Source: an uncultured Clostridium sp.
GTDB lineage: Bacteria > Bacillota > Clostridia > TANB77 > CAG-508
Direction: 5' to 3'
Length of the DNA stretch: 64,000 nucleotides
Assembly: GCA_900553985.1 (NCBI GenBank)
Contig: USFW01000001.1
Coordinates: 11,523-75,522 of the forward strand
Below the pieces are notes generated by a model. That model was given only the letters and a program-made list of their open reading frames with translations, was not told the origin of the DNA and searched no databases. The translations under genes were made by a program, and so were the position numbers. Position 1 is the first letter of the stretch. Every line of letters begins with the position of its first letter. Below, piece by piece: positions 203 through 59,239 of the stretch.

Positions 203-1126
203 TTAATTTCTTCTATCTATCGCATAACTACTTCCCATTACTGATTTTGCTGCATGTTTTACTTGTGCACCTATTTCTCCTATTTCAAGAATATTACTAA
301 ATCTACTTTTTTCTGCAACAACTACACCTATTGATATAGAGGTTAATGGAAATTGTTCAATTATTCCTTTTCTGTTTTCTACTTCAATATACCCTTTTTC
401 TATGTCTCCATCTGTAAAAAATTGCTTTACTTGATTGTCAAATATTGCTATTATATTTTGACATATCTTCTCACAATTTGTTGTTGGTACTATTGCTACA
501 AAGTCGTCTCCCCCAATATGTCCAACAAATGCACTTTCTTCTACATTTGCATGAACTCCTTTTAGTATTGTTTGTGCTGTAAATTCTATAATTTGGTCTC
601 CTTTTAAAAATCCATACACATCGTTATATGCTTTGAAATTATCCAAGTCCAAGTATAATACTGAAAAAGGCTCATTTTTAGATATTCTCTTTTTTAGTTC
701 TGCATGAATTTGTACATTACCTGGTAATCCTGTTAAAGGACTTATTCTTCTGTTAATTGATAATAATCTATTTAAATTTTTTACCGTATAGTACAAATAT
801 TCTTCATCTACTGGTTTTTTGATATAATATTCTATTGATTCTTTTAAAATTCTCATTCTATGTTCTTTTTCACTTCGAGATGAAACTACTATTACTGGAG
901 TTATTGTATTATCTTCATCTTTTCTTATTTGTCTACATAGATTTACAACATCTCTTTGAATAGCATCCTCATTTATTATTATCAATGCTGGTATATTTTT
1001 TAAAGCTACATCAATTTGCTCTGATTTTACACTTATGAATTTATATTCTTTATCATTTTTAAATAATTCTCTGAATATTACTATTGATGAATCATCATCA
1101 TCTATAATATAAATTTCTTGTTTCAT
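203..1126 (-). CDS. Response regulator with an N-terminal receiver (REC) domain and a C-terminal GGDEF (diguanylate cyclase-type) domain. The signature reads GGDDF rather than GG(D/E)EF.
   Basis: The N-terminus (MKQEIYIIDDDDSSIVIF...) is REC-like with acidic-pocket residues. The C-terminal half carries the GGDEF-family core ...FVGHIGGDDFVAIVP.... No RxxD I-site lies upstream of the motif. Confidence 0.7.
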   Translation of the reverse strand: MKQEIYIIDDDDSSIVIFRELFKNDKEYKFISVKSEQIDVALKNIPALIIINEDAIQRDVVNLCRQIRKDEDNTITPVIVVSSRSEKEHRMRILKESIEYYIKKPVDEEYLYYTVKNLNRLLSINRRISPLTGLPGNVQIHAELKKRISKNEPFSVLYLDLDNFKAYNDVYGFLKGDQIIEFTAQTILKGVHANVEESAFVGHIGGDDFVAIVPTTNCEKICQNIIAIFDNQVKQFFTDGDIEKGYIEVENRKGIIEQFPLTSISIGVVVAEKSRFSNILEIGEIGAQVKHAAKSVMGSSYAIDRRN

Positions 1127-1268
1127 TTAATCACACCCTAATTTCCAAAGTAAAATTATTATAACTTTTTAATAATAATTTTTTATTATAATACTTTTTA
1201 GTTTTAATAATTATTTTTATTTATATATCTTTTGCTATTTATATAGATTTAATTATCATTTACCTAAA

Positions 1269-2051
1269 TCATTCATTTTTATTTTTCTTATTTTTTAATT
1301 CTATTTTTCTATTTAATATATCTCTAAATTCTTTTGTATCAATTGCTGGGAATGCTCTTTTTAATCTATATACTCTTTTATATAATCTTCGTAATTCTCT
1401 ATTTTTCCTCTTATTTATTTTTTCAATTAATAATTGCAAATTTTCTGATGTTGTATTTTTTTCTTGATTTTGTTTCTTTATTTCTGCTAGTTTTTCTTTT
1501 ATTTGTTCATTTAATTTTTCTACTTTTTCTAATGTTCCTTTTATATTTTTAGTTTTTACAATACTGATTATAGCATCTGTTAAAATTAGTATTAATAGTA
1601 TAGGAACTATTATTTTTAAATATAATACATCAACATTTTTTAATAGATTTACTATAGCAGGATGTATAAAATCTATAAAAAGTACACCTAAAAATCCCCA
1701 AGCAATTGAGTTTGTTAAACAAATTCTTCCTTTATAATTAAATTTGTGATCTGAATAATCCCAATATTTTGTCTTAAATAATTTTTCTAATATTACTCCT
1801 ACTATATATTCCCATAAGCTTAAAAATATTATTGACATTATAAAAAGTAATATTTTAGAACTTGAAAAGTTCTTTAAAAAGAATATCATTATTATTGCCC
1901 CACATCCATATATAGGGCATATTGGACCTCTTAGAAAACCTGTATTTATTATTTTTTTCTCACAAAAACTTCTAAATATACTTTCTAAAACCCAACCTAA
2001 AAATGAATATATAATAAAATATGTTGATAATTCTAATAATTGTATCGACAT
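1269..2051 (-). CDS. Polytopic membrane protein, possibly DUF1113/CmpB-like, with a C-terminal K/E-rich coiled-coil tail
   Basis: There are about six predicted TM helices. Motifs FLGWVLE and GPICPIYGCGA resemble the GPxxPIYGxG signature of the putative ABC-transporter CmpB/DUF1113 family; that family name is recalled from memory, not searched. The last ~90 aa are K/E/N-rich. Confidence 0.45.
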   Translation of the reverse strand: MSIQLLELSTYFIIYSFLGWVLESIFRSFCEKKIINTGFLRGPICPIYGCGAIIMIFFLKNFSSSKILLFIMSIIFLSLWEYIVGVILEKLFKTKYWDYSDHKFNYKGRICLTNSIAWGFLGVLFIDFIHPAIVNLLKNVDVLYLKIIVPILLILILTDAIISIVKTKNIKGTLEKVEKLNEQIKEKLAEIKKQNQEKNTTSENLQLLIEKINKRKNRELRRLYKRVYRLKRAFPAIDTKEFRDILNRKIELKNKKNKNE

Positions 2052-2108
2052 TTATTTCCTTTCAATTAATTCTCTACACATAAATATGTAGAGAATTAAT
2101 ACTTGTAA

Positions 2109-3014
2109 TTATTTAGTTTTATTTGCTCTAGTTTTATCTGATTCAATTCCATCTAAATTGTATGCTATAATTTCAACTCTATTTTCCCCATCTTTTAATG
2201 GTAACTTTAATTTCATTTCTTTTTGTCCTTCATTTGCCGTTAAAGTTTTGTTTTCACCATTAATTATAAATTCTATTCTATCTAATCCTGAATCATCTGT
2301 AACTGTTATTAAAAAGTTTTCTTGTGCCTCATCTAATTTTACTTGTATTTTTGGTTTTACTACTCCTTTAACTTTTTGCTCTTTTGTTATAGTTTCATTA
2401 TTTTTATCTACTAGAATAACTGTTAAGGTATGCTCTCCCATTGGAATTTCTATTTCTTGCTCAACTGTTGTAGCATTTATATCAATTTTTTCTTCTTGCT
2501 CTTCATCCCATCTATATGTCATATATGAAATTTCTGTTTCTGCTTCTGCTGATACTTTAACTTTTCCATTATTTATTTCCATTTTTATTATATCTTCTGT
2601 TTCATATGTTTGCTCATTAGATATTTCCTGTCCTTCTATATCTGTAACAGAAACATGTAATTTATTAGTTCCTCCTGGTATCTCTATTTCTTGTTCTATA
2701 TATTTTCTTCCATTTCCAGTTATTATCTTTGATTCTTGTTCATTCCAACTATATTCTATTTTATCTATTGCTTTATCATGTGTTACTTTCAATAATACTG
2801 TTTTATCGTCTTTTTGTTCTTCCGTAATAGAAGGCTTTGTAGGAATGTTATTTTTATCTACTGATTTTTTATAAATCGCATATGAAGCTGTACTAATCAT
2901 TATAACTCCAAATATGATTAATATAATTGAAAAAAACTTTACAATAGTATTTATTTCTATTGGTCCACCTTTTTTATTTCTTTCTGAATTACTTGTAGAT
3001 AATATTTGATTCAT
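2109..3014 (-). CDS. Membrane-anchored secreted protein with three tandem ~70-aa Ig-like repeats
   Basis: An N-terminal TM/signal anchor (FFSIILIIFGVIMISTASYAIY) is followed by three repeats of the pattern ..IEYSW.E......EQEIEIP.G...L.V...D. The same repeat type occurs in the 1422-aa giant protein at 39859-44127. Confidence 0.55.
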   Translation of the reverse strand: MNQILSTSNSERNKKGGPIEINTIVKFFSIILIIFGVIMISTASYAIYKKSVDKNNIPTKPSITEEQKDDKTVLLKVTHDKAIDKIEYSWNEQESKIITGNGRKYIEQEIEIPGGTNKLHVSVTDIEGQEISNEQTYETEDIIKMEINNGKVKVSAEAETEISYMTYRWDEEQEEKIDINATTVEQEIEIPMGEHTLTVILVDKNNETITKEQKVKGVVKPKIQVKLDEAQENFLITVTDDSGLDRIEFIINGENKTLTANEGQKEMKLKLPLKDGENRVEIIAYNLDGIESDKTRANKTK

Positions 3015-3110: not shown

Positions 3111-3160
3111 GATTTTACTGATTTTGGAGTCGTGATTTTGGGGTCGGAGACAAAAATCAT
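3111..3160. repeat. Copy 1 of the dispersed GC-rich palindromic element: 1.5 units, ctGATTTTGGagtcg + TGATTTTGGGGTCGGAGACAAAAATCAT
   Basis: Core ATGATTTTGGGGTCGGAGACAAAAATCAT is an imperfect palindrome. The same element recurs at 3341, 7463, 14411, 31092 and 59211. It is much more GC-rich than its surroundings. Confidence 0.8.
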
Positions 3161-3280
3161 TTACTTAAAATAAATATAAGAAAAGCTATTATAGGTCTTT
3201 TTAAAGGTTACTTTTACTTGTTGTATACAGAAAAATCCTATATAAGTTCAAGATAAAAGTCAATTTTTCCTACACAATAA

Positions 3281-3324
3281 AAAAACTAGAAATTTAACAT
3301 TTTAGTTAAATTTCTAGTTTTCAT
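3281..3324. terminator. Bidirectional rho-independent terminator downstream of adhesin paralogue A
   Basis: AACTAGAAATTT ... AAATTTCTAGTT perfect 12-bp stem flanked by an A-run 5' and a T-run 3'. Confidence 0.6.
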
Positions 3325-4670
3325 TATATTATAAACTTGAATGATTTTTGTCTCCGTCCCCAAAATCATTGAAAACATTTTTCTTTGGCTCCCAAAACAT
3401 GACTCCAAGGTTAGATTCCACAATTATTCTACATTACATATTTTTTTATTAAGAATATTCCTCCTGCTATTGTTACTAGTACTACTATTCCTAATCCTAC
3501 ATATGTTATTGCTTTACCTGTTTCTATTGATAATATTACTGGTGCATCATCTATATCATCTTCTCCTGGCTTTTTATTGTCTGGGGTTGAGTCTCTATCT
3601 GGTACTCCTTTGTCATTATAGTCTTTTGATATTTCTGCTATATTTGTTTTTAGTCCCATATTATCTTCTCTATTTATCCATGTTAATAACACTTCTACAT
3701 CTGCTGATTCTCCTGGTTGTAATAATGTGTTTTCTAATTTTGTTGTTGATATTATATTGTTTCCTTCATCTTTCCAATATGGATTATCTTCTGCTACAAA
3801 TTTTAACCCTTCTGGTACATAGTCTGTTATTTCTTTTACATATCCTGCTATGTCTCCTTCATTTGTTACTCTTATTGAGTATCTGAATTTTACTGTTACT
3901 TGATTTATGTCTTTTCTATATAATTCTACTTTTACTACTGGTTCTGGATCCATATCTGGTGTATGTCCTGTTTGAGTTACTGTTTGTTTTCCATCTTCTA
4001 TTACTATTGCTTCTGTTACCCATTTTCTTAATGCCAAGTCAAAATATCTTAATTTTATGTATTCTTTATCTTGGTCATCTTCTCCTTCTACCCATTTGTC
4101 TGGTGTTGAATCTTTATCTTCTACTGGATTTCCTTCTTTATCACTATCTTCTGATATTTGTGCTGAATTTATTATTACCTTATCTGATCCATTTGGTTCT
4201 ACTACTTCAAATGCTACCTCTATATCTCTATGATCTGGATTTGTTTCACTTATTTCTTCATTTTTATTAAATGCTTTTAATAAGTTTTCTCCTTCTTTTT
4301 CTTCTTGCTCTTTTGATAAGTAATCTGTTGTTATTTTTTCTGCTTCTTCTACATTTTCTGTCTCTTTTCCTTCTTTATCATACATTACCCATCTATATTT
4401 TACATTTGTTTCATTTTCTGGTAAGAATTTTAACCCATCTGGTATATCATCTGATACTAGTTGTGCATATCCATCAATATCTCCTTCGTTATATACTCTT
4501 ATTGTATAGGTTACTATATCTCCTGTTACTACATCCATTGGATCTTTTGGATGATTATATGTTATTTTGTCTTTTTCTTTATCATAACTTACTTCTGGTA
4601 TTCTTGTTGTTACATCTTTTCCATCTATATTTGTTATGAATTTTCTTAAGGCTAAGTCAAATTCTTGTAC
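3320..4670. repeat. Copy A of a ~1.35 kb near-identical direct duplication. It covers the 3' ~1.24 kb of adhesin gene A plus ~110 bp of downstream sequence.
   Basis: The nucleotide sequence is identical to 7442-8792 except for a handful of substitutions (for example 4431 and 4590-4600). The encoded C-terminal ~410 aa of the two proteins differ at only 2 residues. Confidence 0.85.
3341..3400. repeat. Copy 2 of the palindromic element (reverse orientation; variant CCGTCCCC) plus a degenerate half unit
   Basis: ATGATTTTTGTCTCCGTCCCCAAAATCAT is followed by tttggctcccaaaacat. With copy 1 it forms an inverted pair flanking ~180 bp. Confidence 0.75.
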
Positions 4671-7202
4671 TATAACTTTTTCAAAATCGTCATCATCTTC
4701 TTGTCCAGGAACATATTCTTTATTTATTTCTTCATCTTTATATGATGGTAGTTTTTCATCTGATGGTATTGTTATTTTACTTGGATCTGAATCTATATCA
4801 TCTACTTCTTTTCCGTTTGCATCAGCATCTTTAGTTATTGCAGCTATATTGGTTAATTTTTTGTTTGTTTCTGCTGTATTTTTTACTTTACAAGCTACTT
4901 GTAAATCTTTATAATCTAATTTCTCACCATCAAATGCTTTTATTAAATTTTTTCTTTCTGAATTTTCTTTAGCTTTTGATAAATAATCTGTTGTTATAGT
5001 TCTTCCGTCTTTTCCAAGTACCCATTCATATTTTTTATTTATAGCATTATCTGTTAAAAATTCTAATTCTTCTGGTAAAAAGTCTGTTACTTCTTCTACA
5101 TACCCATCTAATTGCCCTTCATTATATACTCTTATTGTATATATTATTATATCATTTTTAGCAACATAAAGTTCTTTTTTCGGATGATTATATACAGAAG
5201 TTGTATCTGTTTTATCTTTTAAATTTGTCACATCAACTTTTGGAACTCTATCATATTTTTTATCATTTACATTTGTTATAAATTTTCTTAATGATAGATC
5301 AAAGTTTTTTATTTTCTCATTTCCTACTTTTATTTTTATAGTATTTCCTTCTACCTTTACACTAGTTCCTTCTACTTGCCCTGTTTTTATTGTTGCATTT
5401 TTTAGTGTATATTTTCCATTACTATTTTGTTTTTCTACTTCTATTGTCATTGTGTCTAAAATTTTGTTATATCCTTCTGGGGCTTTTGTTTCTTTTACTT
5501 GTATTGTATCTTTTGTTGTTACATCTTCAATTTTTACTGTTCCTAAGTCTAAAATCCCATTTTCTCCTGTTCCCTTTTTAGTTGGCTCTTTTCCTGGTAA
5601 TGTTACTTCAAACTCTGCTCCTGCTAATTTTATTGATGGATCATCTTTGTCTACTTTTTCTAATTGTATTTGATAATTTCCTGTAATTTGTTCAATTCTT
5701 AATTTTTCAAAGTCATCGTCATCTTGCTCACCTTTATAGAAATAATTTGGGTCTTCTAATTCTGATTTATTTGAATTATTTCCTTTATATTCTGACATAT
5801 TATCTTTATTTACATTAGGTGCTGTTGTTGGCTCAGAATCTCTATCTGCCCCTTTTTGATTTGTTATTATTGTTCCATTTGCATCTACTTCTTCAGAAAT
5901 CCATGCTACATTTGTTAAAATTTTAGTTTCATTATTTGCTTCAACTGTACATTCAATTTCTATTGTTTCATATGCAATATTTTCTCCTGTATATGGTGCC
6001 AAATTATTGTTTTCTGTTTTAGTTATCGTTATTTTATTAGTTGCTTTATCATAATTTGCAGTATATCCTGTTGTATTTATCTTAGAATATACTAATCCTG
6101 TTGGTAATTGGTCAATTATCTTAGTTGCTCTACCTTCTATATCTCCTTCATTGTAAATTGTAAGATTATATGTAACAACATCTCCATTTTTTACTAAAAT
6201 AGGTTCTTTTCTATGTTTATATGTTGCTGTTGTTCCATTATCTAATGTAGTTTTATCTATTGAAGGATTTCTTGTATTGGTAACATTATTTCCATTTACT
6301 TTAGTTATATATTTTCTTAATGCTAAATCAAATTCCTGTGGAATTCTTTCTATATCCATTAATGGTTGTTCTTGATTATTTTTGCTTGATGCATATAATG
6401 TCAATTTTGATCTATGATTTGAATTACCTGAGTTTGCTTTTGCAGTATCAATTAAATATTTATATAATACTTCTGCTTGTTCTTGTCTTTGATGTCCAGC
6501 ACTTGCATTTGGTACTGTTCCTGTCGGATTATAATCACTTAAATTCTTATAAGTTGATCCATTTTCTGTATACCATAACCAAGCTGTATTACTATATTTA
6601 TCATATTTGTTTCCTTCTTCTCCATAATTAGTAAAATACCATATTGCGGCTTGTTGTACTGCTTTTATTTCATCATCTGTTATATCAAAATCATATGCTT
6701 CGTCATAAATTCCAGCATTATTAAGTAAAGTTGTTCTTTCTGATTGCTCAGATTGACCTGGTAAATATAATAGATCTGCCAAAGCTAATAGTTCATCATA
6801 ATGACCATTATTTACTAATCCATTTAATACTGAATTTTGTACTGCTATTTGCTGTTTGTCTTTTATCATATCAAATTTCAAGTCATATTCTGCTGTTTTC
6901 TTTGTATCACTAAATCCTACTCCTGCTTTTACACAATATACATTTACTTCAGTTGGATCTGCAAAATTAGAATTACTATATTTTACTATATTCCAAATTT
7001 TAGCTGCTGACCCTGTTACTCCATTTGTATTTGGATCTCCTATTGCATATCCTAAGTTTGGTGTTGATAAAGTTCTTAGTTCAGTTATTCCAAAATATAA
7101 TGGTGGTGACATTGTTTCTGCAATTACTGTACTAAACAATATTCCTGAAATTAAAAATAATATTAAAACTAAACTTACAATTATTAATCTACAATTTTTC
7201 AT
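3429..7202 (-). CDS. Large cell-surface adhesin, paralogue A. Domain order: signal peptide, candidate thioester (TQXA-type) domain, DUF11 module, CnaB-type domain, three further DUF11 (TIGR01451-like) modules, then a C-terminal sorting-signal-like tail (SIETG + TM + KKYVM).
   Basis: The likely true start is the ATG at 7202 (MKNCRLIIVSL...) with an AGGAGAG RBS 6 nt upstream; the ORF track extends to 7229. The mature N-terminus contains YCVKAG and IKAVQQAAIWYFTNYGEE, consistent with the Cys and TQxA(I/V)W Gln motifs of Gram-positive thioester domains. Segment YQIQLEKVDKDDPSIKLAGAEFEV...ETKAPEGYNK matches the CnaB-type consensus. The unit ...TYTIRVYNEGDIDGYAQLVSDDIPDGLKF... recurs and matches the DUF11/conserved-repeat domain. 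Each module is preceded by an acidic linker (EQDDDDFEK) and FDLALRK. Confidence 0.8.
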   Translation of the reverse strand: MKNCRLIIVSLVLILFLISGILFSTVIAETMSPPLYFGITELRTLSTPNLGYAIGDPNTNGVTGSAAKIWNIVKYSNSNFADPTEVNVYCVKAGVGFSDTKKTAEYDLKFDMIKDKQQIAVQNSVLNGLVNNGHYDELLALADLLYLPGQSEQSERTTLLNNAGIYDEAYDFDITDDEIKAVQQAAIWYFTNYGEEGNKYDKYSNTAWLWYTENGSTYKNLSDYNPTGTVPNASAGHQRQEQAEVLYKYLIDTAKANSGNSNHRSKLTLYASSKNNQEQPLMDIERIPQEFDLALRKYITKVNGNNVTNTRNPSIDKTTLDNGTTATYKHRKEPILVKNGDVVTYNLTIYNEGDIEGRATKIIDQLPTGLVYSKINTTGYTANYDKATNKITITKTENNNLAPYTGENIAYETIEIECTVEANNETKILTNVAWISEEVDANGTIITNQKGADRDSEPTTAPNVNKDNMSEYKGNNSNKSELEDPNYFYKGEQDDDDFEKLRIEQITGNYQIQLEKVDKDDPSIKLAGAEFEVTLPGKEPTKKGTGENGILDLGTVKIEDVTTKDTIQVKETKAPEGYNKILDTMTIEVEKQNSNGKYTLKNATIKTGQVEGTSVKVEGNTIKIKVGNEKIKNFDLSLRKFITNVNDKKYDRVPKVDVTNLKDKTDTTSVYNHPKKELYVAKNDIIIYTIRVYNEGQLDGYVEEVTDFLPEELEFLTDNAINKKYEWVLGKDGRTITTDYLSKAKENSERKNLIKAFDGEKLDYKDLQVACKVKNTAETNKKLTNIAAITKDADANGKEVDDIDSDPSKITIPSDEKLPSYKDEEINKEYVPGQEDDDDFEKVIVQEFDLALRKFITNIDGKDVTTRIPEVSYDKEKDKITYNHPKDPMDVVTGDIVTYTIRVYNEGDIDGYAQLVSDDIPDGLKFLPENETNVKYRWVMYDKEGKETENVEEAEKITTDYLSKEQEEKEGENLLKAFNKNEEISETNPDHRDIEVAFEVVEPNGSDKVIINSAQISEDSDKEGNPVEDKDSTPDKWVEGEDDQDKEYIKLRYFDLALRKWVTEAIVIEDGKQTVTQTGHTPDMDPEPVVKVELYRKDINQVTVKFRYSIRVTNEGDIAGYVKEITDYVPEGLKFVAEDNPYWKDEGNNIISTTKLENTLLQPGESADVEVLLTWINREDNMGLKTNIAEISKDYNDKGVPDRDSTPDNKKPGEDDIDDAPVILSIETGKAITYVGLGIVVLVTIAGGIFLIKKYVM

Positions 7203-7402
7203 ACTAATCTCTCCTATATAATATACCATATATATTATACCTTATTTTTGCATATTTTTCAATGCTATCCTCTATAATTGTCAGCATTTACAATTATTAT
7301 AGGATTTTTTTCTTAGGGATTTTTAATTTAAAACCTTTTTTACTTTTTTATTACAAAAATTTTTTGATAATAATTTTATAATTAGAAATTAAAACAAATA
7401 TA

Positions 7403-7446
7403 AAAACCAGAAATTCAGCTTTTTAAGTTGAATTTCTGGTTTTCAT
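7403..7446. terminator. Rho-independent terminator downstream of adhesin paralogue B
   Basis: ACCAGAAATTCAGC ... GTTGAATTTCTGGT is a 14-bp stem with one mismatch, followed by a T-run. It sits at the same position as the terminator after paralogue A. Confidence 0.6.
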
Positions 7447-8792
7447 TATATTATAAACTTGAATGATTTTTGTCTCCGTCCCCAAAATCATTGAAAACAT
7501 TTTTCTTTGGCTCCCAAAACATGACTCCAAGGTTAGATTCCACAATTATTCTACATTACATATTTTTTTATTAAGAATATTCCTCCTGCTATTGTTACTA
7601 GTACTACTATTCCTAATCCTACATATGTTATTGCTTTACCTGTTTCTATTGATAATATTACTGGTGCATCATCTATATCATCTTCTCCTGGCTTTTTATT
7701 GTCTGGGGTTGAGTCTCTATCTGGTACTCCTTTGTCATTATAGTCTTTTGATATTTCTGCTATATTTGTTTTTAGTCCCATATTATCTTCTCTATTTATC
7801 CATGTTAATAACACTTCTACATCTGCTGATTCTCCTGGTTGTAATAATGTGTTTTCTAATTTTGTTGTTGATATTATATTGTTTCCTTCATCTTTCCAAT
7901 ATGGATTATCTTCTGCTACAAATTTTAACCCTTCTGGTACATAGTCTGTTATTTCTTTTACATATCCTGCTATGTCTCCTTCATTTGTTACTCTTATTGA
8001 GTATCTGAATTTTACTGTTACTTGATTTATGTCTTTTCTATATAATTCTACTTTTACTACTGGTTCTGGATCCATATCTGGTGTATGTCCTGTTTGAGTT
8101 ACTGTTTGTTTTCCATCTTCTATTACTATTGCTTCTGTTACCCATTTTCTTAATGCCAAGTCAAAATATCTTAATTTTATGTATTCTTTATCTTGGTCAT
8201 CTTCTCCTTCTACCCATTTGTCTGGTGTTGAATCTTTATCTTCTACTGGATTTCCTTCTTTATCACTATCTTCTGATATTTGTGCTGAATTTATTATTAC
8301 CTTATCTGATCCATTTGGTTCTACTACTTCAAATGCTACCTCTATATCTCTATGATCTGGATTTGTTTCACTTATTTCTTCATTTTTATTAAATGCTTTT
8401 AATAAGTTTTCTCCTTCTTTTTCTTCTTGCTCTTTTGATAAGTAATCTGTTGTTATTTTTTCTGCTTCTTCTACATTTTCTGTCTCTTTTCCTTCTTTAT
8501 CATACATTACCCATCTATATTTTACATTTGTTTCATTTTCTGGTAAGAATTTTAATCCATCTGGTATATCGTCTGATACTAGTTGCGCATATCCATCAAT
8601 ATCTCCTTCGTTATATACTCTTATTGTATATGTTACTATATCTCCTGTTACTACATCCATTGGGTCTTTTGGATGATTATATGTTATTTTATCTTTTTCT
8701 TTATCATAACTTGCTTCAGGCACTCTTGTTGTTACATCTTTTCCATCTATATTTGTTATGAATTTTCTTAATGCTAAATCAAATTCTTGTAA
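7442..8792. repeat. Copy B of the ~1.35 kb near-identical direct duplication (3' end of adhesin gene B plus downstream sequence)
   Basis: See 3320-4670. The offset between the copies is 4122 bp. Confidence 0.85.
7463..7522. repeat. Copy 3 of the palindromic element (lies within the duplicated block; identical to copy 2)
   Basis: ATGATTTTTGTCTCCGTCCCCAAAATCAT + degenerate half unit. Confidence 0.75.
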
Positions 8793-11018
8793 CATTATAT
8801 TGTCATAATCTTCATCATCTTCATATTTTACCCATTCTTCTGGTTTTGAATCTCTATCCTCTACTGGATTTCCTTCACTATCTGAGTCGTCTGTAATTGC
8901 TGCTTCATTTCTTATAATACCAATACCTGGGTCTGTTGCAACAACTTTTAATATTACTGAAACTTCTCTGTAATCTGGATTTCTATTATCTTTTTCATCA
9001 CTATATGGTTTAGATGAATCAAACGCTTTTATTAAATTTGCTCCTTTAGTTGTTATTTCTTCTCCTTTTCCTTTAGCTAAATAGTCTGTCGTAATTTTAG
9101 AAGAGTCTCCTTTAACATATGTCCATCCCATTTTTGTATTATATTCTACTGCTGCTAATTCCTCTTTATCAGTTATAGGATTCATATCTTTATCAATAGT
9201 TGCTCCTAAGAATTCTAATCCTTCTGGAATATCTTCTGTTATTTGAGAAGCATATCCATCAATTTCTCCTTCATTATATATTCTTAAAGTATATTTTACT
9301 AAATCACCTGTTTTTACAGAAACTGGTTCTTTATTTAATTGGTAATCTGCTGTTGTTGCAGTTCCATTTGCTAATTTAGTTATATCTACACCTTGTATTC
9401 TTTCTTTTACTTTCTTGTCATTTACTTCTACTATTCTTTTAACAAGTTTTAAATCAAAATCTTTCTTTTCTATTATTGTTTCTTTTTTTACTATTAGTTT
9501 CTCAAAGTCATCATCATCTTGCTCACCCTTGTAAAAATAATTTGAATCAGCTAATTCTGTTTTATTTTGAGAGCTACCTTTATAATTGTCCATATTATCT
9601 TTATTTACATTTGGAATTGTTGCAGGTTCTGAATCTCTATCTTTTCCAACTTGATTTGTAATTATTACATCATTTGCATCTACTTCTTCTGCTATATATG
9701 CTACATTTGTTAAAATTTTATCTTTTTCATCACTTGTAACCACTGCTTCTATTTCAATAGTTTCTGAATCTATTTTTCCTTTAGTATATGCTTTTAAGTT
9801 TTGTCTATTATCTTGTTTCTTTGTAAGTGTCAATGTATTTGTTTCTTCGTTATAGTCTACCTCATAACCTTGTGTATTTATTTTTGAATATTTTAACCCT
9901 GTTGGTAATTGATCAACTATTTTTGTTGCTCTTCCATCAACTTCACCTTCATTATATATAGTCAAATTATATGTAACAACTGTATCTTTTTTTACTTCTA
10001 TCGGATCTTTTCTGTGTTTATATGTTGCTGTTGTTCCATCTTCTAAAGTTTTTTCATCTATAACTGGTACTCTAGAACTTGTAACATTTACTCCATTTAT
10101 TTTTGTTATATATTTTCTTAAGGCTAAATCAAATTCTTGAGCTTGTCTTTCTATTTCCATTAATGGCTGCTCTTGATTGTTTTTACTTGATGCATATGAT
10201 GTTAATTGTGTTTTATAATTTCCATTTGGATCTGTATAATTATTAGCATTTTTATTTGCTGTATCTATTAAATATTTATATAATAATTCTGCTTGTTGTT
10301 GTTTTTGGAAACCTGCACTAGCATTTGGTACTGTATTTGTTGGATTATATTCACTAAAATTTTTATATGTGCTTCCATCTTCTGTATACCATAGCCAAGA
10401 TGTATTATCATATTTATCATATTTATTATTTTCTTCTCCATAATTAGTAAAATACCACATTGCTGCTTGTTGAATTGCTTTTATTTCATCATCTGATAAT
10501 TCAAATCCCCAAGCTTCTTTATATATTCCTGCATTTTCTAATAAAGCATTTTTTTCTGCTTCTGTTGAAACTCCTGGTAAATATACTAAATCAGCAAGTG
10601 CTAAAAGATTATTATAATGTCCACCATTGACAAGTTTATTTAATATATCATTTTGTTTTGCTATTTCCTCTCTTTCTGTATACATATCAAAACTTAAATT
10701 ATATTCTGCATTTTTCTTGACATCACTAAATCCAACTCCAGCTTTTACACAATATACGTTTACTTCTTTAGGATCATTAAAGTTACTGCTATTGTATTGA
10801 ACTATATTCCAAATTTTAGCTGCTGATCCAGTTACACCATTTGAGTTTGGATCTCCTATTGCATATCCTAAATTTGGTGTTGATAGTGTCCTTAATTCTG
10901 TTATTCCAAAATACAATGGTGGATTAAGTGTCATTGCTTTAGCTATATTAGGTAATAACATTAGTACTACTGTTATTAATGTTGATAAACTTGCTAATAA
11001 TACTCTTTTTAATTTCAT
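7551..11018 (-). CDS. Large cell-surface adhesin, paralogue B. Domain order: signal peptide, candidate thioester domain, four DUF11 modules, then the same SIETG sorting-signal-like C-terminus. It lacks the CnaB-type insert of paralogue A.
   Basis: The start at 11018 has an AAGGAG RBS 8 nt upstream. The signal peptide is MKLKRVLLASLSTLITVVLMLLPNIAKA. Motifs YCVKAGVGF and IKAIQQAAMWYFTNYGEE are present. The N-terminal ~470 aa are ~75% identical to paralogue A and the C-terminal ~410 aa are near-identical. Confidence 0.8.
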   Translation of the reverse strand: MKLKRVLLASLSTLITVVLMLLPNIAKAMTLNPPLYFGITELRTLSTPNLGYAIGDPNSNGVTGSAAKIWNIVQYNSSNFNDPKEVNVYCVKAGVGFSDVKKNAEYNLSFDMYTEREEIAKQNDILNKLVNGGHYNNLLALADLVYLPGVSTEAEKNALLENAGIYKEAWGFELSDDEIKAIQQAAMWYFTNYGEENNKYDKYDNTSWLWYTEDGSTYKNFSEYNPTNTVPNASAGFQKQQQAELLYKYLIDTANKNANNYTDPNGNYKTQLTSYASSKNNQEQPLMEIERQAQEFDLALRKYITKINGVNVTSSRVPVIDEKTLEDGTTATYKHRKDPIEVKKDTVVTYNLTIYNEGEVDGRATKIVDQLPTGLKYSKINTQGYEVDYNEETNTLTLTKKQDNRQNLKAYTKGKIDSETIEIEAVVTSDEKDKILTNVAYIAEEVDANDVIITNQVGKDRDSEPATIPNVNKDNMDNYKGSSQNKTELADSNYFYKGEQDDDDFEKLIVKKETIIEKKDFDLKLVKRIVEVNDKKVKERIQGVDITKLANGTATTADYQLNKEPVSVKTGDLVKYTLRIYNEGEIDGYASQITEDIPEGLEFLGATIDKDMNPITDKEELAAVEYNTKMGWTYVKGDSSKITTDYLAKGKGEEITTKGANLIKAFDSSKPYSDEKDNRNPDYREVSVILKVVATDPGIGIIRNEAAITDDSDSEGNPVEDRDSKPEEWVKYEDDEDYDNIMLQEFDLALRKFITNIDGKDVTTRVPEASYDKEKDKITYNHPKDPMDVVTGDIVTYTIRVYNEGDIDGYAQLVSDDIPDGLKFLPENETNVKYRWVMYDKEGKETENVEEAEKITTDYLSKEQEEKEGENLLKAFNKNEEISETNPDHRDIEVAFEVVEPNGSDKVIINSAQISEDSDKEGNPVEDKDSTPDKWVEGEDDQDKEYIKLRYFDLALRKWVTEAIVIEDGKQTVTQTGHTPDMDPEPVVKVELYRKDINQVTVKFRYSIRVTNEGDIAGYVKEITDYVPEGLKFVAEDNPYWKDEGNNIISTTKLENTLLQPGESADVEVLLTWINREDNMGLKTNIAEISKDYNDKGVPDRDSTPDNKKPGEDDIDDAPVILSIETGKAITYVGLGIVVLVTIAGGIFLIKKYVM

Positions 11019-14410: not shown

Positions 14411-14496
14411 ATGATTTTGGGGTCGGAGACAAAAATCATTTTCAACTACTCACATGATTTTTGTCTCCGACCCCAAAATCACGACCCCAAAATCAT
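14411..14496. repeat. Copy 4 of the palindromic element: two full units in inverted orientation separated by a 14-nt spacer, plus an extra half unit. Predicted to form a ~29-bp-stem hairpin.
   Basis: ATGATTTTGGGGTCGGAGACAAAAATCAT - tttcaactactcac - ATGATTTTTGTCTCCGACCCCAAAATCA - cgaccccaaaatcat. It lies between plsX and the tuf terminator. Confidence 0.8.
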
Positions 14497-39858: not shown

Positions 39859-42800
39859 CTATCCTGGACAATTCATTGGAATTCCTTCTGGTCTATTTGG
39901 ACACTTAAACCATGAAACCGGTGATTTCTTTCCACATATTGTACATATAGGATGTCTATATTGATAGTGGTATCCCCCGCATTCACATGACCATCCATAT
40001 GAGTGATTGTGAAGAGTTGTACAGTATCCTCCTGTATTACAAGTATGTGCTGGCGGAGATTCTGCTACTATGTTTACACCTAATGTTGTTATCATTTGGT
40101 CTTTTCCGTTTATTTTAGCGTACACATGTGTATTATACCAACCACTTTCATAATTATGATTTGAAACTTTTACTTCACCTATGTATGCTCCGTTTCCTAA
40201 AGGTCTTGTAGTTATCCATTCTATATCATCTTGTGAGTTTTTGTTTGTCCATGTTGGAAGTAATACCTCACTTACATTACTTCTATTTGTATAAACAGTT
40301 ACATTATATCCTTTTGATGTAACATTCCATATATATGCCATCTCTGTATTTGGCACTGTAGCTGATGTCCCTAAAGTTAAATTAGACACTCCACTTGCAT
40401 TTTTCTCATATGTATGTATATTATATTTACCCGATTCATAATTATGACTTGCTACACCGACATGATATGTATACGCCCCATTGCCAACTGATTTAGCCGC
40501 ATACCATTTAATATCATCTTGAGTTGTATTTCCTATTTTCTTTTCTGTCCATACTGGAAATTCTACTTTGCTTAGTCCTGGAGAATCTGTATAATATTCA
40601 ATATCAAATCCTTCTCTGTTAATATTTTTTGTTGTCAAATATTTTTCACTTTTTATTTCTGTTGAAGTACCTGCTATAAAAATATTCTTTTGATTTGCTG
40701 TATTATAGTAAGCATGAGTATTGTATTTTCCATATTCATAATTATGATCTGAAACATTTACTCTAAAATAATATACTCCTGTTTTTTCTAAAGTTCCAGC
40801 TTTCCAAATCATATCGTCTTGATTATTTTTTTCTGTCCATGTAGGAAATAATACTTCTTGTATCCCTGTTGCATCTGTATATGCATATACATCATATCCA
40901 TCACGCTTAACATTTTTTATTTCCACTACATTCGTTAACTTCTTAGTTATTGTTTTTGTAGAACTATTTCCTGAAGTATCTCTAACCACTACTTTCAATG
41001 AATATGTTTTTAATGGTGTCAAATTTGTATATGTATATGATGCACTAGTACTAGATGTTGTTAATGTTCCTTTCAATACATTATCTAAGTAAAATTCATA
41101 TTTTTGTATTGCTACATTGTCGGTTGCATTTACCTCAACTTTTATTGATGAGGCAGTTATATCTCCTAATTCAAATTTATTAATAACAGGCGCTTGTGTA
41201 TCTGCCCAATGAGCATACATTGTTCTGTTATATGTTGGAGTATATGTTGCACCTCCATTACCTATTTTATTTCCTCCACTTGCTGCATCATACCATCCTG
41301 CAAATGTATAACCCATTCTTGTTGGTGTTGGTAATGTTATACTGTTATTTTTATAATTTGCTGTTAATGTTCCATTTCCTGCTCCGAATGTATATGTTGT
41401 TCCACTTAATGTTCCACTACCACTGTTTGTCCAACCACTAAATGATTTAGTTGATGTTATTGCTGAAGGTGTGCTTCCTCCATTTCCATTAAATGTTACT
41501 TTGTATCCGGTAGGTGCTGTTGGATTTGCTATTGTTTTTGTTGTTCCATAATTTTGTGTAAATACACTATTTTCTGTTGTACTATTCCAAGTTCCGCCAT
41601 TTGGATTTACTGTTAAAGAATAACTATTTAGCTCCCAAATTGCATAAATTGTAATTTTAGGTGAATTTGTATTTATCCAAGTATCTGATACTTCAGATAA
41701 AACACTATATTGAGCTGTTGATGCATCTCTATCTTTATTCCAGCCAAGTAAAGTATATCCTGTTTTTGTCCATCCTTTATCACTAAATTTTTGTTCAGTT
41801 ACTCCATATGTAAATGTTTGTTTAACGCTAGTGTTATCAGTTGAAGAAGTATTTCTTACAAATGTAACTTCTATTTGTTTAGCTTGCCAAACTGCGTATA
41901 AAGTAGCTGAGGCGTTATTTGTATATGTTGCTCCTGGTTGATATTCAGCTGTTGAACTAGATTTATTAGTTGACCATCCTATAAATGTATATCCTGTTCT
42001 TGAAGGCTGTATAGTACTCAATGTTATAGTTTTATTATGTTCTTTTATTTGGCTATCAGGAGCCCCTTTTCCACCATTAGCATCATATATGACTGAATAA
42101 TTTGCTATATATGGATTTGATTTTTGAATATTAATTGCTCTATTTCCAGCATTATCTGTTACTTTTGTGTATAAATACCATATTCCTCCTGATATATTTT
42201 CTGTTATTATATTTCCATTAGTAAAAGTTTTCCAATTTGGATCATCATCTAATGGCAATGTGCTAGAAGAACTTATTTGATATTCTAAAGTATTTAGTCC
42301 AGATCCATTCACATCTTGGGCATTTATACTTGTAGTTATTTGCGCAAAATTGCTATTTTGTGCAACAGTATATGTACCTCCATTTGTGCCCAACTCTACA
42401 GTTGGTGCTATTTTATCAATATTAGTTATTTGTTTTGTAGCAGTAACTTTGTTTCCATTACCGTCTATTGCTTCAGCATAAATATAGTAATTATTAGTTG
42501 TAACTACCATTTGATTTGCTGTATTTTCACTCGCAGCATTTTTTGCTTCTTCTATGCTTATTCCCATTCCAGCTTTTTTTCCTTGAGTTAATGCTGAACC
42601 ATATGTAATTGTTATATTTACATTATCTTTTGTCCATGTAGTCGGAGTAGATGTTATTACTATTTTAAATGCTTCTGAGTTATTTGAACTTACTATAAAA
42701 GGATTACTTACTTTTATTTTACTTGCTTTATTGCCTACATTATCAATTACATTTGTCCATAAATAGTATGTTCCACTTGTAGCATCATTTTTTACTATTT

Positions 42801-44127
42801 CTTTCCCATTTTCAAATGTTTCCCAATTTATTGGTTCTACTGTATTAGATGTAGACCATGCATACTCTAATGTATGTAATCCACTTTCATTATCTAGTGC
42901 TTCTAATTTTGCTTTTAGTGTTGTTTTTCCTCCTGCCGGAATATAATAAGTATTTCCATTTGGAGTTATATTCACTGTTGGAGGTATTATATCTTGTTTT
43001 ACAGTTGTATATGAAGTTTCACTTATATTTCCTGCATTATCTATTGCTCTAACATATATTTTTCCATTAAAACTATTATCCCATTTTCCTGAAATTGATG
43101 CTTCATTTCCATTATTTTGTAATATTCCTTGCCAGTTAGATTGCCAATCTACCTCATCATAGCTATATTCTATTTTTGAAATTTTTGATAATGAGTCACT
43201 AGATTTTGCAATGATTTCAACATCTTTATTTGTCCATATATCATTATACTCATTTTCTATTATTGGTTTTGTTGGTGCTGTTAAGTCATATCTTAATTGA
43301 TATACATTAGAAATATTTGAATAATTTCCTGCTCTATCTTTAGCTCTAAAATAAATATCTTCAATTCTACCATCTTTTAAAGTCCAGGTTTCTTTTCCGC
43401 AATATTTATTTAATTCTTGATAAATACCATTGCTTTGGTTGAAATCAAGTTTTATCCAATTTTGTTTATCTGTTGAATAATACATTTCTGGAATTCCTGA
43501 TATTTCTTCTTTTACTGAAATGGTTGTATAAGTTTCTTTATTAGTCCATGTTCCAGAAGCATATTTTCCATTATTTTTAATATAAAAGGAATCATAAAAC
43601 AACACGGGAATTTCTTTATCAAATTTTGTTAATTCAATTCTTTGCTCTTTATCTCCAAATGTAACAACAACTGTACTATTTCCAGTAATTATAACTTCAT
43701 TATTATCAACTTGACTTTTATTATATGTAACAGTATTGCCTGTTTTCTTACTAGTTACTTTAACTTGTAACTGAGCATCTGGATTATTTTCAGAGCTTAC
43801 TGTCACTTTAGCTATTACATTTTCATTTGTCCACTCAGATAAATTATACTCCACTTTGTTAGGACTATTAATAGTAGACTCCTTAATAAAAACTGTTTTT
43901 AAGTCAGCTTTTACCAAATTTTCATATATTTCATCCATATTTTCTAAATCTTTATTATAATTTTCTTCAATTGCTTTTATTTCTTCTGTTTGCGCAATTA
44001 ACTTATTTTTATTACTAGAATACACATTCAGTGATACTATTAGAAAAAATATAATCGCTATTAAAATAAACAATGTCACTGAACCCTTTTCACTAAAAAA
44101 TTTATTTTCCCTTAATTTTTTTATCAT
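39859..44127 (-). CDS. Giant (1422 aa) N-terminally anchored surface protein. It contains Ig-like domains, Listeria-Bacteroides repeats, three GBS-Bsp-like repeats and a Cys/His-rich C-terminal tail.
   Basis: The N-terminal signal anchor is SVTLFILIAIIFFLIVSL. The repeats TGYTFIGWSTN...ATLYAVW and MGYTFAGWYD...TMYAHW are of the Listeria-Bacteroides (Flg_new) type. Three ~90-aa repeats of the form DGYDVYAYTD...FPTWTEKNNQDDMIWKAG...VSDHNYEYGKYNTHAY are GBS-Bsp-like. The last 65 aa contain 8 Cys and 6 His (CNTGGYCTTLHNHSYGWSCECGGYHYQYRHPICTICGKK...CPNRPEGIPMNCPG). Confidence 0.8.
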   Translation of the reverse strand: MIKKLRENKFFSEKGSVTLFILIAIIFFLIVSLNVYSSNKNKLIAQTEEIKAIEENYNKDLENMDEIYENLVKADLKTVFIKESTINSPNKVEYNLSEWTNENVIAKVTVSSENNPDAQLQVKVTSKKTGNTVTYNKSQVDNNEVIITGNSTVVVTFGDKEQRIELTKFDKEIPVLFYDSFYIKNNGKYASGTWTNKETYTTISVKEEISGIPEMYYSTDKQNWIKLDFNQSNGIYQELNKYCGKETWTLKDGRIEDIYFRAKDRAGNYSNISNVYQLRYDLTAPTKPIIENEYNDIWTNKDVEIIAKSSDSLSKISKIEYSYDEVDWQSNWQGILQNNGNEASISGKWDNSFNGKIYVRAIDNAGNISETSYTTVKQDIIPPTVNITPNGNTYYIPAGGKTTLKAKLEALDNESGLHTLEYAWSTSNTVEPINWETFENGKEIVKNDATSGTYYLWTNVIDNVGNKASKIKVSNPFIVSSNNSEAFKIVITSTPTTWTKDNVNITITYGSALTQGKKAGMGISIEEAKNAASENTANQMVVTTNNYYIYAEAIDGNGNKVTATKQITNIDKIAPTVELGTNGGTYTVAQNSNFAQITTSINAQDVNGSGLNTLEYQISSSSTLPLDDDPNWKTFTNGNIITENISGGIWYLYTKVTDNAGNRAINIQKSNPYIANYSVIYDANGGKGAPDSQIKEHNKTITLSTIQPSRTGYTFIGWSTNKSSSTAEYQPGATYTNNASATLYAVWQAKQIEVTFVRNTSSTDNTSVKQTFTYGVTEQKFSDKGWTKTGYTLLGWNKDRDASTAQYSVLSEVSDTWINTNSPKITIYAIWELNSYSLTVNPNGGTWNSTTENSVFTQNYGTTKTIANPTAPTGYKVTFNGNGGSTPSAITSTKSFSGWTNSGSGTLSGTTYTFGAGNGTLTANYKNNSITLPTPTRMGYTFAGWYDAASGGNKIGNGGATYTPTYNRTMYAHWADTQAPVINKFELGDITASSIKVEVNATDNVAIQKYEFYLDNVLKGTLTTSSTSASYTYTNLTPLKTYSLKVVVRDTSGNSSTKTITKKLTNVVEIKNVKRDGYDVYAYTDATGIQEVLFPTWTEKNNQDDMIWKAGTLEKTGVYYFRVNVSDHNYEYGKYNTHAYYNTANQKNIFIAGTSTEIKSEKYLTTKNINREGFDIEYYTDSPGLSKVEFPVWTEKKIGNTTQDDIKWYAAKSVGNGAYTYHVGVASHNYESGKYNIHTYEKNASGVSNLTLGTSATVPNTEMAYIWNVTSKGYNVTVYTNRSNVSEVLLPTWTNKNSQDDIEWITTRPLGNGAYIGEVKVSNHNYESGWYNTHVYAKINGKDQMITTLGVNIVAESPPAHTCNTGGYCTTLHNHSYGWSCECGGYHYQYRHPICTICGKKSPVSWFKCPNRPEGIPMNCPG

Positions 44128-59042: not shown

Positions 59043-59210
59043 TCACCTTTTCAAATTTATGTGTACTAAGCTTAATTTCAAATGCATTCCGTGATATTTG
59101 TCAATATTATTCCGTGATATTTCGATATTTTATTCGGTTATTTTAGCATTATTTTCAAAATTCGAAAAATCTTTAACGAATTTGACATAGTGGCTCTAAA
59201 CTTGATATCG

Positions 59211-59239
59211 ATGGTTTTTGTCTCCGACCCCAAAATCAG
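59211..59239. repeat. Copy 6 of the palindromic element (single unit, ATGgTTTTTGTCTCCGACCCCAAAATCAg)
   Basis: It lies immediately 3' of the tatD stop codon. Confidence 0.7.

Follow-up and report, generated by a model that had tools for sequence, protein, structure and literature searches.

Probable gene conversion between the 3' ends of tandem genes for predicted thioester-domain adhesins in an uncultured gut Clostridium

The two genes and their shared 3' block

The DNA analysed here (the window; 64,000 nt, positions 11,523-75,522 of the forward strand of contig USFW01000001.1 in assembly GCA_900553985.1, with 27.5% G+C and zero N) belongs to an uncultured Clostridium sp. Two adjacent genes on its minus strand, which we call A and B, encode predicted thioester-domain (TED) fibrillar adhesins whose heads have diverged and whose 3' ends are nearly identical (coordinates of these and the other features discussed are collected in table 1). 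We argue below that this shared 3' block very probably arose because two ancient tandem paralogues have repeatedly converted each other, in both directions, by interlocus (ectopic) gene conversion, now and then with unequal crossing-over.

The two copies of the block were compared base by base at an offset of 4122, and a separate repeat search gave the same pairs. Near-identity spans 3300-4690 and 7422-8812, and within it lie 1117 nt with no mismatch at all (3317-4433 and 7439-8555), an exact match that chance cannot give in DNA of 27.5% G+C; in alignment columns the longest identical run of the pair is 1120. On the 3' side there are mismatches at 3303, 3308 and 3316 (94% identity in 3300-3349), on the 5' side there are 12 in 4434-4670 and 20 in 4434-4690, and past about 4700 the ungapped identity drops to about 40%, as in random sequence. 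Elsewhere the two genes share exact runs of at most 27 nt. An earlier model-made reading of the sequence alone (the sequence-only reading) had placed the repeat at 3320-4670 and 7442-8792 and had included in it about 110 bp of 3' flank with a palindromic element. The repeat is real and these coordinates are right to about 20 nt at each end, with 12 mismatches confined to 4434-4670, and the block does run 112 nt past the stop codons, with the element at 3340-3368 and 7462-7490.

The block contains the last 414 codons of both genes and 112 nt of 3' untranslated region (UTR), and so encodes the third and fourth CLIPPER/DUF11 stalk domains and the membrane/wall anchor; 412 of the last 414 residues of the two proteins are identical. 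Its 5' limit is the boundary between the second and third stalk domains (D2/D3; QEFDLALRKFITN), beyond which the nucleotide identity of A and B is about 46%, and its 3' limit is the first stem arm of a terminator hairpin. Upstream of the block the TED heads and first stalk domains are about 66-88% identical (per 50-column bin of the protein alignment), the second stalk domains are about 40-55% identical, and A has an extra SpaA-type domain of about 125 amino acids (aa) relative to B, so the sequence-only figure of about 75% protein identity for the 5' two-thirds of the genes is only roughly right. Both copies of the block also contain duplicate antisense open reading frames (ORFs) of 103-181 aa, at 3341-3886, 3959-4270 and 4271-4639 in one copy and 7463-8008, 8081-8392 and 8393-8761 in the other (all on the plus strand), which are most likely by-products of the low-GC coding strand that were copied along with the repeat.

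The mechanical ORF of gene A reaches 7229 (1266 aa), but the gene likely starts at the ATG at 7202 (M10 of that ORF), since an AGGAGAG ribosome-binding site precedes this ATG, a promoter-like -10 sequence ends at 7234, the start of B aligns with M10 of A, and the orthologues have been called at 1257 aa.

Predicted thioester-domain adhesins

Both proteins have a signal peptide, and both match the Pfam TED model PF08341 (27.6 bits for A and 23.6 for B, with a cutoff of 22); the NCBIfam TQXA model scores below its cutoff. The residues YC63V, Q156-Q157-A-A-x-W161 and Q257-P258 are invariant in 30 diverse homologues, and they fit the known TED motifs, namely the bond-forming Cys in [YFL]C, a TQxxΦW-type motif and a conserved C-terminal Gln (PMC6194298). 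The conserved C-terminal Gln would be the bond-forming Gln of the predicted heads. An AlphaFold2 model of the B head (residues 28-301) has a pLDDT of 85.7, and the only significant PDB matches in a fold search with it are the TEDs 4c0z (Cpa), 5a0l and 5a0n (SfbI), with probabilities of 0.94-1.0 and modest TM-scores of 0.38-0.53. A sequence search of the PDB with gene B gave no match, and an exact-sequence look-up of the two window proteins found no record.

The stalks are built largely of DUF11 domains, a family recently characterised and renamed CLIPPER, which is a CnaA-like stalk domain of fibrillar adhesins with an intramolecular isopeptide bond (PMC12617251). Each CLIPPER domain begins with a conserved FDLALRK sequence whose lysine is a putative isopeptide lysine. 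The 61-nt motif that encodes it is found at 3989-4049, 4607-4667, 5249-5309, 6278-6338, 8111-8171, 8729-8789 and 10079-10139; its copies are 62-100% alike, and one of them follows closely, in the gene sense, on the 5' limit of the block. Out-of-register domain shuffling through these junction repeats was considered and set aside, as the copies are only 62-85% alike outside the block.

The C-terminal signal GEDDIDDAPVxL(S/A)(I/V)xTG, followed by a hydrophobic (transmembrane) helix and a KK(F/Y)V tail, is conserved across species; it was noted at window positions 3406-3428 and at the C-termini of the proteins of loci L001-L052. The putative sorting motif in it, L(S/A)(I/V)xTG, lacks proline and is not a canonical LPXTG, and the layout is sortase-like; no sortase is present among the window proteins scanned. 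These features of the sequences and of the model make the assignment of A and B as TED fibrillar adhesins a well-supported inference.

The tandem arrangement is old

The window is core chromosome, with rpoB, rpoC, EF-G, EF-Tu, S7, dnaB, ftsH, plsX, acpP and a D-Ala-D-Ala carboxypeptidase gene, and there is no recombinase or transposase among the window proteins scanned. A genome scan found 52 loci with such genes, all in uncultured gut Clostridia. The slot plsX, acpP, dacB (on the minus strand), one to three TED genes, an Ig-like protein of 301 aa, CmpB and a GGDEF response regulator is syntenic in about 40 assemblies, and most of the 52 loci hold at least its upstream genes. Two-gene loci occur in many species, with a B-type gene upstream and, downstream, an A-type gene that has from one to five or more SpaA domains, and the heads of the TED genes group by gene position across species. 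As the two-gene slot is syntenic and the heads are orthologous across species, A and B are ancient tandem paralogues. Of the two origins that the sequence-only reading had offered for the block, recent gene conversion or recent duplication, the latter does not agree with this ancient and syntenic arrangement.

Downstream of the adhesin slot in the window (203-3014) are the genes for two membrane proteins, one of 301 aa with Ig-like repeats and one of the CmpB type, and for a diguanylate cyclase of the response-regulator/GGDEF kind, which keep synteny with the slot in dozens of species. This downstream synteny hints that cyclic di-GMP signalling may be functionally tied to the adhesins. A second large surface protein of 1422 aa, with GBS_Bsp-like and Listeria-Bacteroides repeats and Big_7, is encoded at 39859-44127 on the minus strand and is unrelated to the TED pair.

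Conversion tracts in related strains

A metagenome scan and a protein search with contig look-ups supplied nine further assemblies for comparison. L053, L129, L132 and L134 are of the same species (flanks 98.8-100% identical to the window; 99.8-100% in L129), and L130, L131, L133, L135 and L136 form a sister clade (flanks 86-97% identical), of which L130 (1.6 Mb) and L131 (1.37 Mb) are nanopore contigs. All nine carry B and then A; the contig of L134 begins 250 nt upstream of A and therefore breaks at the repeat. The identity of the sister-clade flanks to the window is uneven, only about 86% upstream and 94-97% downstream. In this clade the gene calls divide dacB (PBP5-type), which lies upstream of B, into two ORFs of 268 and 151 aa (4567-5842 in L130, and likewise in L131, L133, L135 and L136), where elsewhere there is one of 426-459 aa, and the split gene may be a pseudogene.

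Comparison of the locus across related strains, which the sequence-only reading had proposed, yielded identical tracts of 354-1120 nt with differing ends in nine strains (table 1) and conversion in both directions. The parts of the genes behave very differently. In D2 the identity of A and B is 46%, against 95.5% and 98.0% for A-A and B-B comparisons between strains. The 5' edge of the block (4434-4690) is also orthologous, with A and B 89.9% identical within strains and A-A and B-B comparisons between strains at 96.8% and 95.5%, and a site map shows that the differences there are A-specific or B-specific in all strains. The core coding part, on the other hand, is concerted: within strains A and B are 98.5% identical, against 97.3% for A-A and B-B and 96.9% for A-B between strains. 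In a permutation analysis of runs of concordant polymorphic sites (Sawyer-type, in our own simple implementation rather than GENECONV), such runs were longer than expected by chance in 9 of 9 strains (p <= 2e-4). Orthologues of near-clonal strains differ by 2-3% in the block, where the window paralogues differ nowhere in the exact tract. The heads have never been exchanged between A and B in this species.

The 3' flank, which comes in two haplotypes whose differences include a segment of about 33-36 nt, gives the direction of the latest events. In the window both copies have the A-type flank, while the B flanks of L053, L129 and L132 do not have the segment, so the conversion in the window ran from A to B. 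In L129 both copies have the B-type flank and are identical for 148 nt past the stop codon, on through a second palindromic element, so there the conversion ran from B to A; the A copy of L134 also has a B-type 3' flank. We considered whether the L129 tract ends exactly in the second palindromic element, and dropped this because small indels at the junction allow the end to be placed only at or just beyond it. A B-type patch in the core of the window copies (about 3711-3807), also found in L129 and L132, suggests that an earlier B-to-A event may have preceded the latest A-to-B event in the window. Thus, the part of the sequence-only reading that invoked recent gene conversion is borne out: near-clonal strains differ in tract length, endpoints and direction, and across the 12 genomes compared in the next section the 3' ends cluster within genomes, while in several of these genomes the heads cluster by orthology.

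Homogenised 3' ends in other species

In 9 of 12 genomes the two paralogues resemble each other more closely, over the last domain (domain 4) and the anchor, than they resemble any copy from another genome; within-genome and best other-genome identities are, for example, 97.4 and 88.0% in L011, 96.4 and 83.2% in L036, 99.5 and 95.6% in L044, and 100 and 95.9% in the window. The TED heads show the reverse in six genomes, where the paralogous heads are 60-68% identical while the best match in another genome is 74-89% identical. By self-comparison the 3' blocks are 87-99% identical in 13 loci. Homogenisation is thus recurrent across the group and mostly at the 3' end.

In L009 a 5' head block is homogenised as well (1475 nt at 99.7%, 4236-5710 against 8153-9627), and in L007 the 5' head region is 93% identical between the paralogues (3695-4532 against 7230-8066). 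Heads have been homogenised in L009, L007, L011 and L014, and across the group conversion is therefore not confined to the 3' end.

Gene number, stalk length and broken contigs

The closest other species (L001/L068, L003/L055 and L010; 88-94% identity) have a single TED gene in the slot. In these loci a B head and the shared block run into the downstream flank of A, and the B-A spacer is gone, which is the product expected of a deletion by recombination between direct repeats and presumably arose in that way. Five contigs (from four or five independent assemblies) pass straight through the single-gene locus, while contigs of genomes with both genes tend to stop at the block, and for this reason we think that the single-gene state is real. 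An attempt to place the crossover point in these relatives from their 3' flanks failed, as the flanks are too diverged and rearranged. At the other extreme L015 (5186-19884) has three tandem TED genes in the slot; the third has many SpaA and CLIPPER domains, and the contig ends inside its 3' block. The sequence-only proposal that the repeats could delete or amplify a gene copy therefore has indirect support, from the single-gene loci of sister species with their B head and A flank and from the three genes of L015.

The number of near-identical SpaA domains in A varies within the species, with alleles of one, two or three (1257, 1382 and 1507 aa). Three or two tandem SpaA domains are found in L129 (10001-14524) and in the proteins P0001 and P0002 (from the same or a very close lineage), against one in the window, and these differences appear to be variation in stalk length by tandem domain expansion.

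Contigs end at or inside the block in L008 (which comes with L037 from one metagenome-assembled genome, MAG), L018, L019, L020, L022 and L134, so the assembly-collapse hazard foreseen by the sequence-only reading is a real one.

Terminators and palindromic elements in the 3' UTR

The 3' UTR has a folding z of -4.8. For the terminator of B the scan reported the stem on the plus strand only; on the strand of the gene a T run comes after this stem. This terminator has compensatory stem changes relative to that of A, and so lies outside the latest conversion tract. Rfam at gathering thresholds gave no RNA family in the whole window, and the 3' UTR element and the leaders are therefore not accounted for by a riboswitch or other known RNA.

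The palindromic element is present in six copies in the window against zero expected: 3133-3161(-), 3340-3368(+), 7462-7490(+), 14412-14440(-), 14453-14481(+) and 59210-59238(+). Its sequence is AATGATTTTTGTCTCCG[A/T]CCCCAAAATCA, often followed by CGAC[C/T]CCAAAATCA sub-repeats, and the copies sit in intergenic 3' regions beside terminators. Of 128 loci, only the closest relatives (L003, L010, L053 and L055) have its core motif, and the flanks that carry it are hypervariable between strains. The element resembles repetitive extragenic palindromes (REP) or miniature inverted-repeat transposable elements (MITE). Dispersed elements of this kind may serve as homology anchors on the distal side, or as hot spots, and so define where the exchanged unit ends.

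Table 1. Coordinates of the genes, repeat copies and associated features of the window, and longest A-B identical run in each strain
Feature	Position	Strand	Remarks
Gene A	3429..7202	-	1257 aa: TED head, CLIPPER/DUF11, one SpaA-type, three CLIPPER, anchor; Pfam TED, SpaA, DUF11 x4
Gene B	7551..11018	-	1155 aa: TED head, four CLIPPER/DUF11, anchor; Pfam TED, DUF11 x4
Repeat copy 1, exact tract	3317..4433	-	Last 335 codons of A and 112 nt of 3' UTR; zero mismatch
Repeat copy 2, exact tract	7439..8555	-	Last 335 codons of B and 112 nt of 3' UTR; sequence received in the latest A-to-B conversion
Block in A, older 5' edge	4434..4690	-	About 92% identical to partner 8556-8812; 20 differences in 257 nt
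Block in B, older 5' edge	8556..8812	-	Partner of 4434-4690
TED head of B	10116..10937	-	78.7% nucleotide identity to A head (6330-7112) over the head segment compared
SpaA-type (CnaB-like) stalk domain, A only	5295..5684	-	Copy number 1, 2 or 3 between strains
Promoter-like site for A in B-A spacer, TTGAAA-17-TATAAT	7234..7262	-	Consensus match only
Dispersed palindromic element, 3' UTR of A	3340..3368	+	Partner 7462-7490; second, inverted copy at 3133-3161
Palindromic element, 3' UTR of B	7462..7490	+	Partner of 3340-3368
Intrinsic terminator of A	3281..3322	-	3' limit of the exact tract is in its first stem arm
Terminator hairpin of B	7403..7443	-	Homologous to that of A; compensatory stem changes
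Longest A-B identical run, window	4433-3317		1120 nt
Longest A-B identical run, L129	4352-3269		1116 nt; window coordinates
Longest A-B identical run, L132	4352-3510		843 nt; window coordinates
Longest A-B identical run, L130	4166-3416		751 nt; window coordinates
Longest A-B identical run, L053	4352-3808		545 nt; window coordinates
Longest A-B identical run, L133, L135, L136	4433-3976		458 nt; window coordinates
Longest A-B identical run, L131	3769-3416		354 nt; window coordinates

Origin of the block

The two genes have kept divergent heads and share a module in which the two final CLIPPER domains are followed by the C-terminal anchor and the proximal part of the 3' UTR. To account for the repeat, the orthology patterns, the strain-specific tracts in both directions and the single- and triple-copy relatives demonstrated above, we propose that homologous recombination, within one chromosome or between sister chromosomes and presumably by a RecA-type pathway, copies this module in either direction, and does so repeatedly. 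The tracts would stop where homology is lost, at the D2/D3 boundary on the 5' side and at the terminator and dispersed palindromic elements on the 3' side. In the window lineage the latest such event ran from A into B and covered at least 1117 nt. Unequal crossing-over between these repeats is possible too and would give one, two or three genes among related species, the single-copy loci presumably by repeat-mediated deletion. The net outcome would be concerted evolution of the stalk and anchor beneath divergent binding heads rather than programmed variation; conversion might also bring some selective benefit.

Several points weigh against this proposal. The margin of the core coding part within the species is small (98.5% against 97.3%), and the 3' endpoint in L129 has small indels and is not a clean homologous junction. 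Three of the 12 genomes (L007, L012 and L021) have 3' ends that are no closer within the genome than between genomes, so homogenisation is neither universal nor continuous. The single-gene loci come from short-read MAGs or metagenome contigs, where a mis-join is conceivable. Consensus polishing could inflate the perfect identity of the interior of the window repeat, and no recombination intermediates or within-sample variants were observed in the assembled sequences to which our data are confined.

The concern about polishing leads to the first alternative, that the perfect repeat is an artefact of assembly in which the copies truly differ, or only one exists, and a single consensus was put on both. 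Repeats beyond the read length are prone to this error, several short-read contigs do break at the block, and the mismatches in the window are confined to about 260 nt on the 5' side of the block and about 20 nt on its 3' side, where reads anchored in unique sequence can tell the copies apart. Tandem A and B genes are nevertheless present in at least eight other assemblies, two of them nanopore contigs of more than 1 Mb, and these other assemblies have identical runs of 354-1116 nt with differing endpoints. The B flank of the window has moreover gained the A-type segment of about 33-36 nt, a structural change that fits conversion, and L129 has the mirror-image event. Polishing cannot explain such a family-wide and strain-specific pattern, and we regard an artefact as decidedly unlikely. 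A recent partial tandem duplication, in which the 3' 1.35 kb or a whole gene was copied and has not yet diverged, would also look like a perfect 1117-nt direct repeat at 4.1-kb spacing. This explanation is very improbable, however, because both genes, with their distinct heads and the SpaA domain of A, keep their order and slot in many species, head orthology holds across species, all strains share A- and B-specific differences at the 5' edge of the block, and the blocks of near-clonal strains are not identical and have tracts that end elsewhere. A further possibility is that extreme purifying selection alone, in the absence of recombination, keeps the stalk and anchor identical. It might be entertained in view of the high conservation across species of the C-terminal signal and the domain-junction motifs, but it is hardly credible when synonymous sites and the 112 nt of non-coding flank are identical too, and when near-clonal orthologues differ by 2-3% in the very region where the window paralogues do not differ.

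A different question is whether the block serves variation. The sequence-only reading had suggested that the repeats might generate chimeric adhesins or delete a copy as a form of antigenic or phase variation, which would make this a contingency locus with an adaptive high-frequency switch (chimeras, or on/off switching by deletion). The products are predicted surface adhesins of a gut bacterium, gene number varies from one to three among species, and events are frequent relative to point mutation, as strains with 99.7-100% identical flanks differ in conversion state and in SpaA number (1 against 3). Against this, conversion in the species is limited to stalk, anchor and 3' UTR, where it makes the copies more alike and does not diversify them, and the heads remain orthologous. 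Nor did we find the usual apparatus: silent cassettes are lacking, a search in and beside the two genes for simple-sequence contingency tracts and for strong inverted repeats such as those of an invertible promoter gave neither, only short tandem repeats of low copy number and one weak inverted pair (72%), there are no homopolymers of >=8 A/T or >=6 G/C in the genes or their promoters, and there is no recombinase among the window proteins scanned. The antigenic-variation claim thus lacks support, and we consider a dedicated switch of this kind unlikely. A looser idea has a somewhat better, though still small, chance of being right. In it the locus would be a fast-evolving 'adhesin workshop', in which conversion of the module, SpaA expansion (one to three domains) and unequal crossing-over (one to three genes) together outpace point mutation; the reason for thinking so is that strains with 99.7-100% identical flanks already differ in these respects.

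Relation to known systems

The pattern seen here has close relatives elsewhere. In the Helicobacter pylori genes babA/babB and homA/homB the 5' and middle parts are similar between strains and the 3' parts are similar within a strain, which has been attributed to gene conversion (Pride & Blaser 2002, as described in PMC3960876). Genes A and B are a close parallel to babA/babB, being paralogous adhesin genes with concerted 3' segments and orthologous 5' and middle parts, and like the bab and hom genes they vary between strains in copy number and locus occupancy. The H. pylori proteins, however, are Gram-negative outer-membrane proteins encoded at dispersed loci, whereas A and B are adjacent TED/CLIPPER genes of a clostridial commensal. 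In the bab and hom genes the binding region too is moved by conversion, which together with dinucleotide repeats is documented to cause antigenic and phase variation, whereas A and B, in this species, exchange only stalk, anchor and 3' UTR. In the lpl cluster of tandem paralogues in Staphylococcus aureus a conserved segment is the site of recombination (Tsuru & Kobayashi 2008, PMC2568036). There, as here, tandem surface-protein paralogues of a Firmicute are rearranged between strains and the intergenic region travels with the coding segments, but the lpl site is central and variable 5' and 3' halves are shuffled around it, while the A/B block is a 3' end and the results are homogenisation and change of copy number.

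The proteins themselves are akin to the thioester-isopeptide-ester (TIE) adhesins, which include Cpa and SfbI of Streptococcus pyogenes, CpTIE of Clostridium perfringens and BaTIE of Bacillus anthracis (PMC6194298). By their sequences A and B would share with these a signal peptide, a TED head in which Cys and Gln are conserved, a stalk built from Ig-like domains of the isopeptide type (CLIPPER/DUF11 and SpaA) and a C-terminal sorting-type signal; they differ in having no sequence-level match to the solved structures and in having L(S/A)(I/V)xTG in place of LPXTG. In a literature search that was not exhaustive we found no report of gene conversion between tandem TED/CLIPPER paralogues. The process is a known one, and it is the protein family and the organism that are new for concerted 3' tails.

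Implications

The locus offers a population-resolved case, in uncultured gut Clostridia, in which an anchor and stalk module is kept uniform while the predicted covalent-binding heads diverge, and the speed and bidirectionality of conversion among near-clonal strains stand out. In practice, short-read assemblies break or are mis-joined at the block, in a conserved core locus, which makes adhesin copy number in MAGs of this group unreliable, and phylogeny or strain typing based on the 3' part of the A and B genes would mislead. A locus that is prone to rearrangement and has a predicted surface-exposed product merits tracking in gut communities over time. If subpopulations within a host were to differ in the state of the locus, this would be recombination-based surface variation of predicted covalent-binding TED adhesins in the human microbiota.

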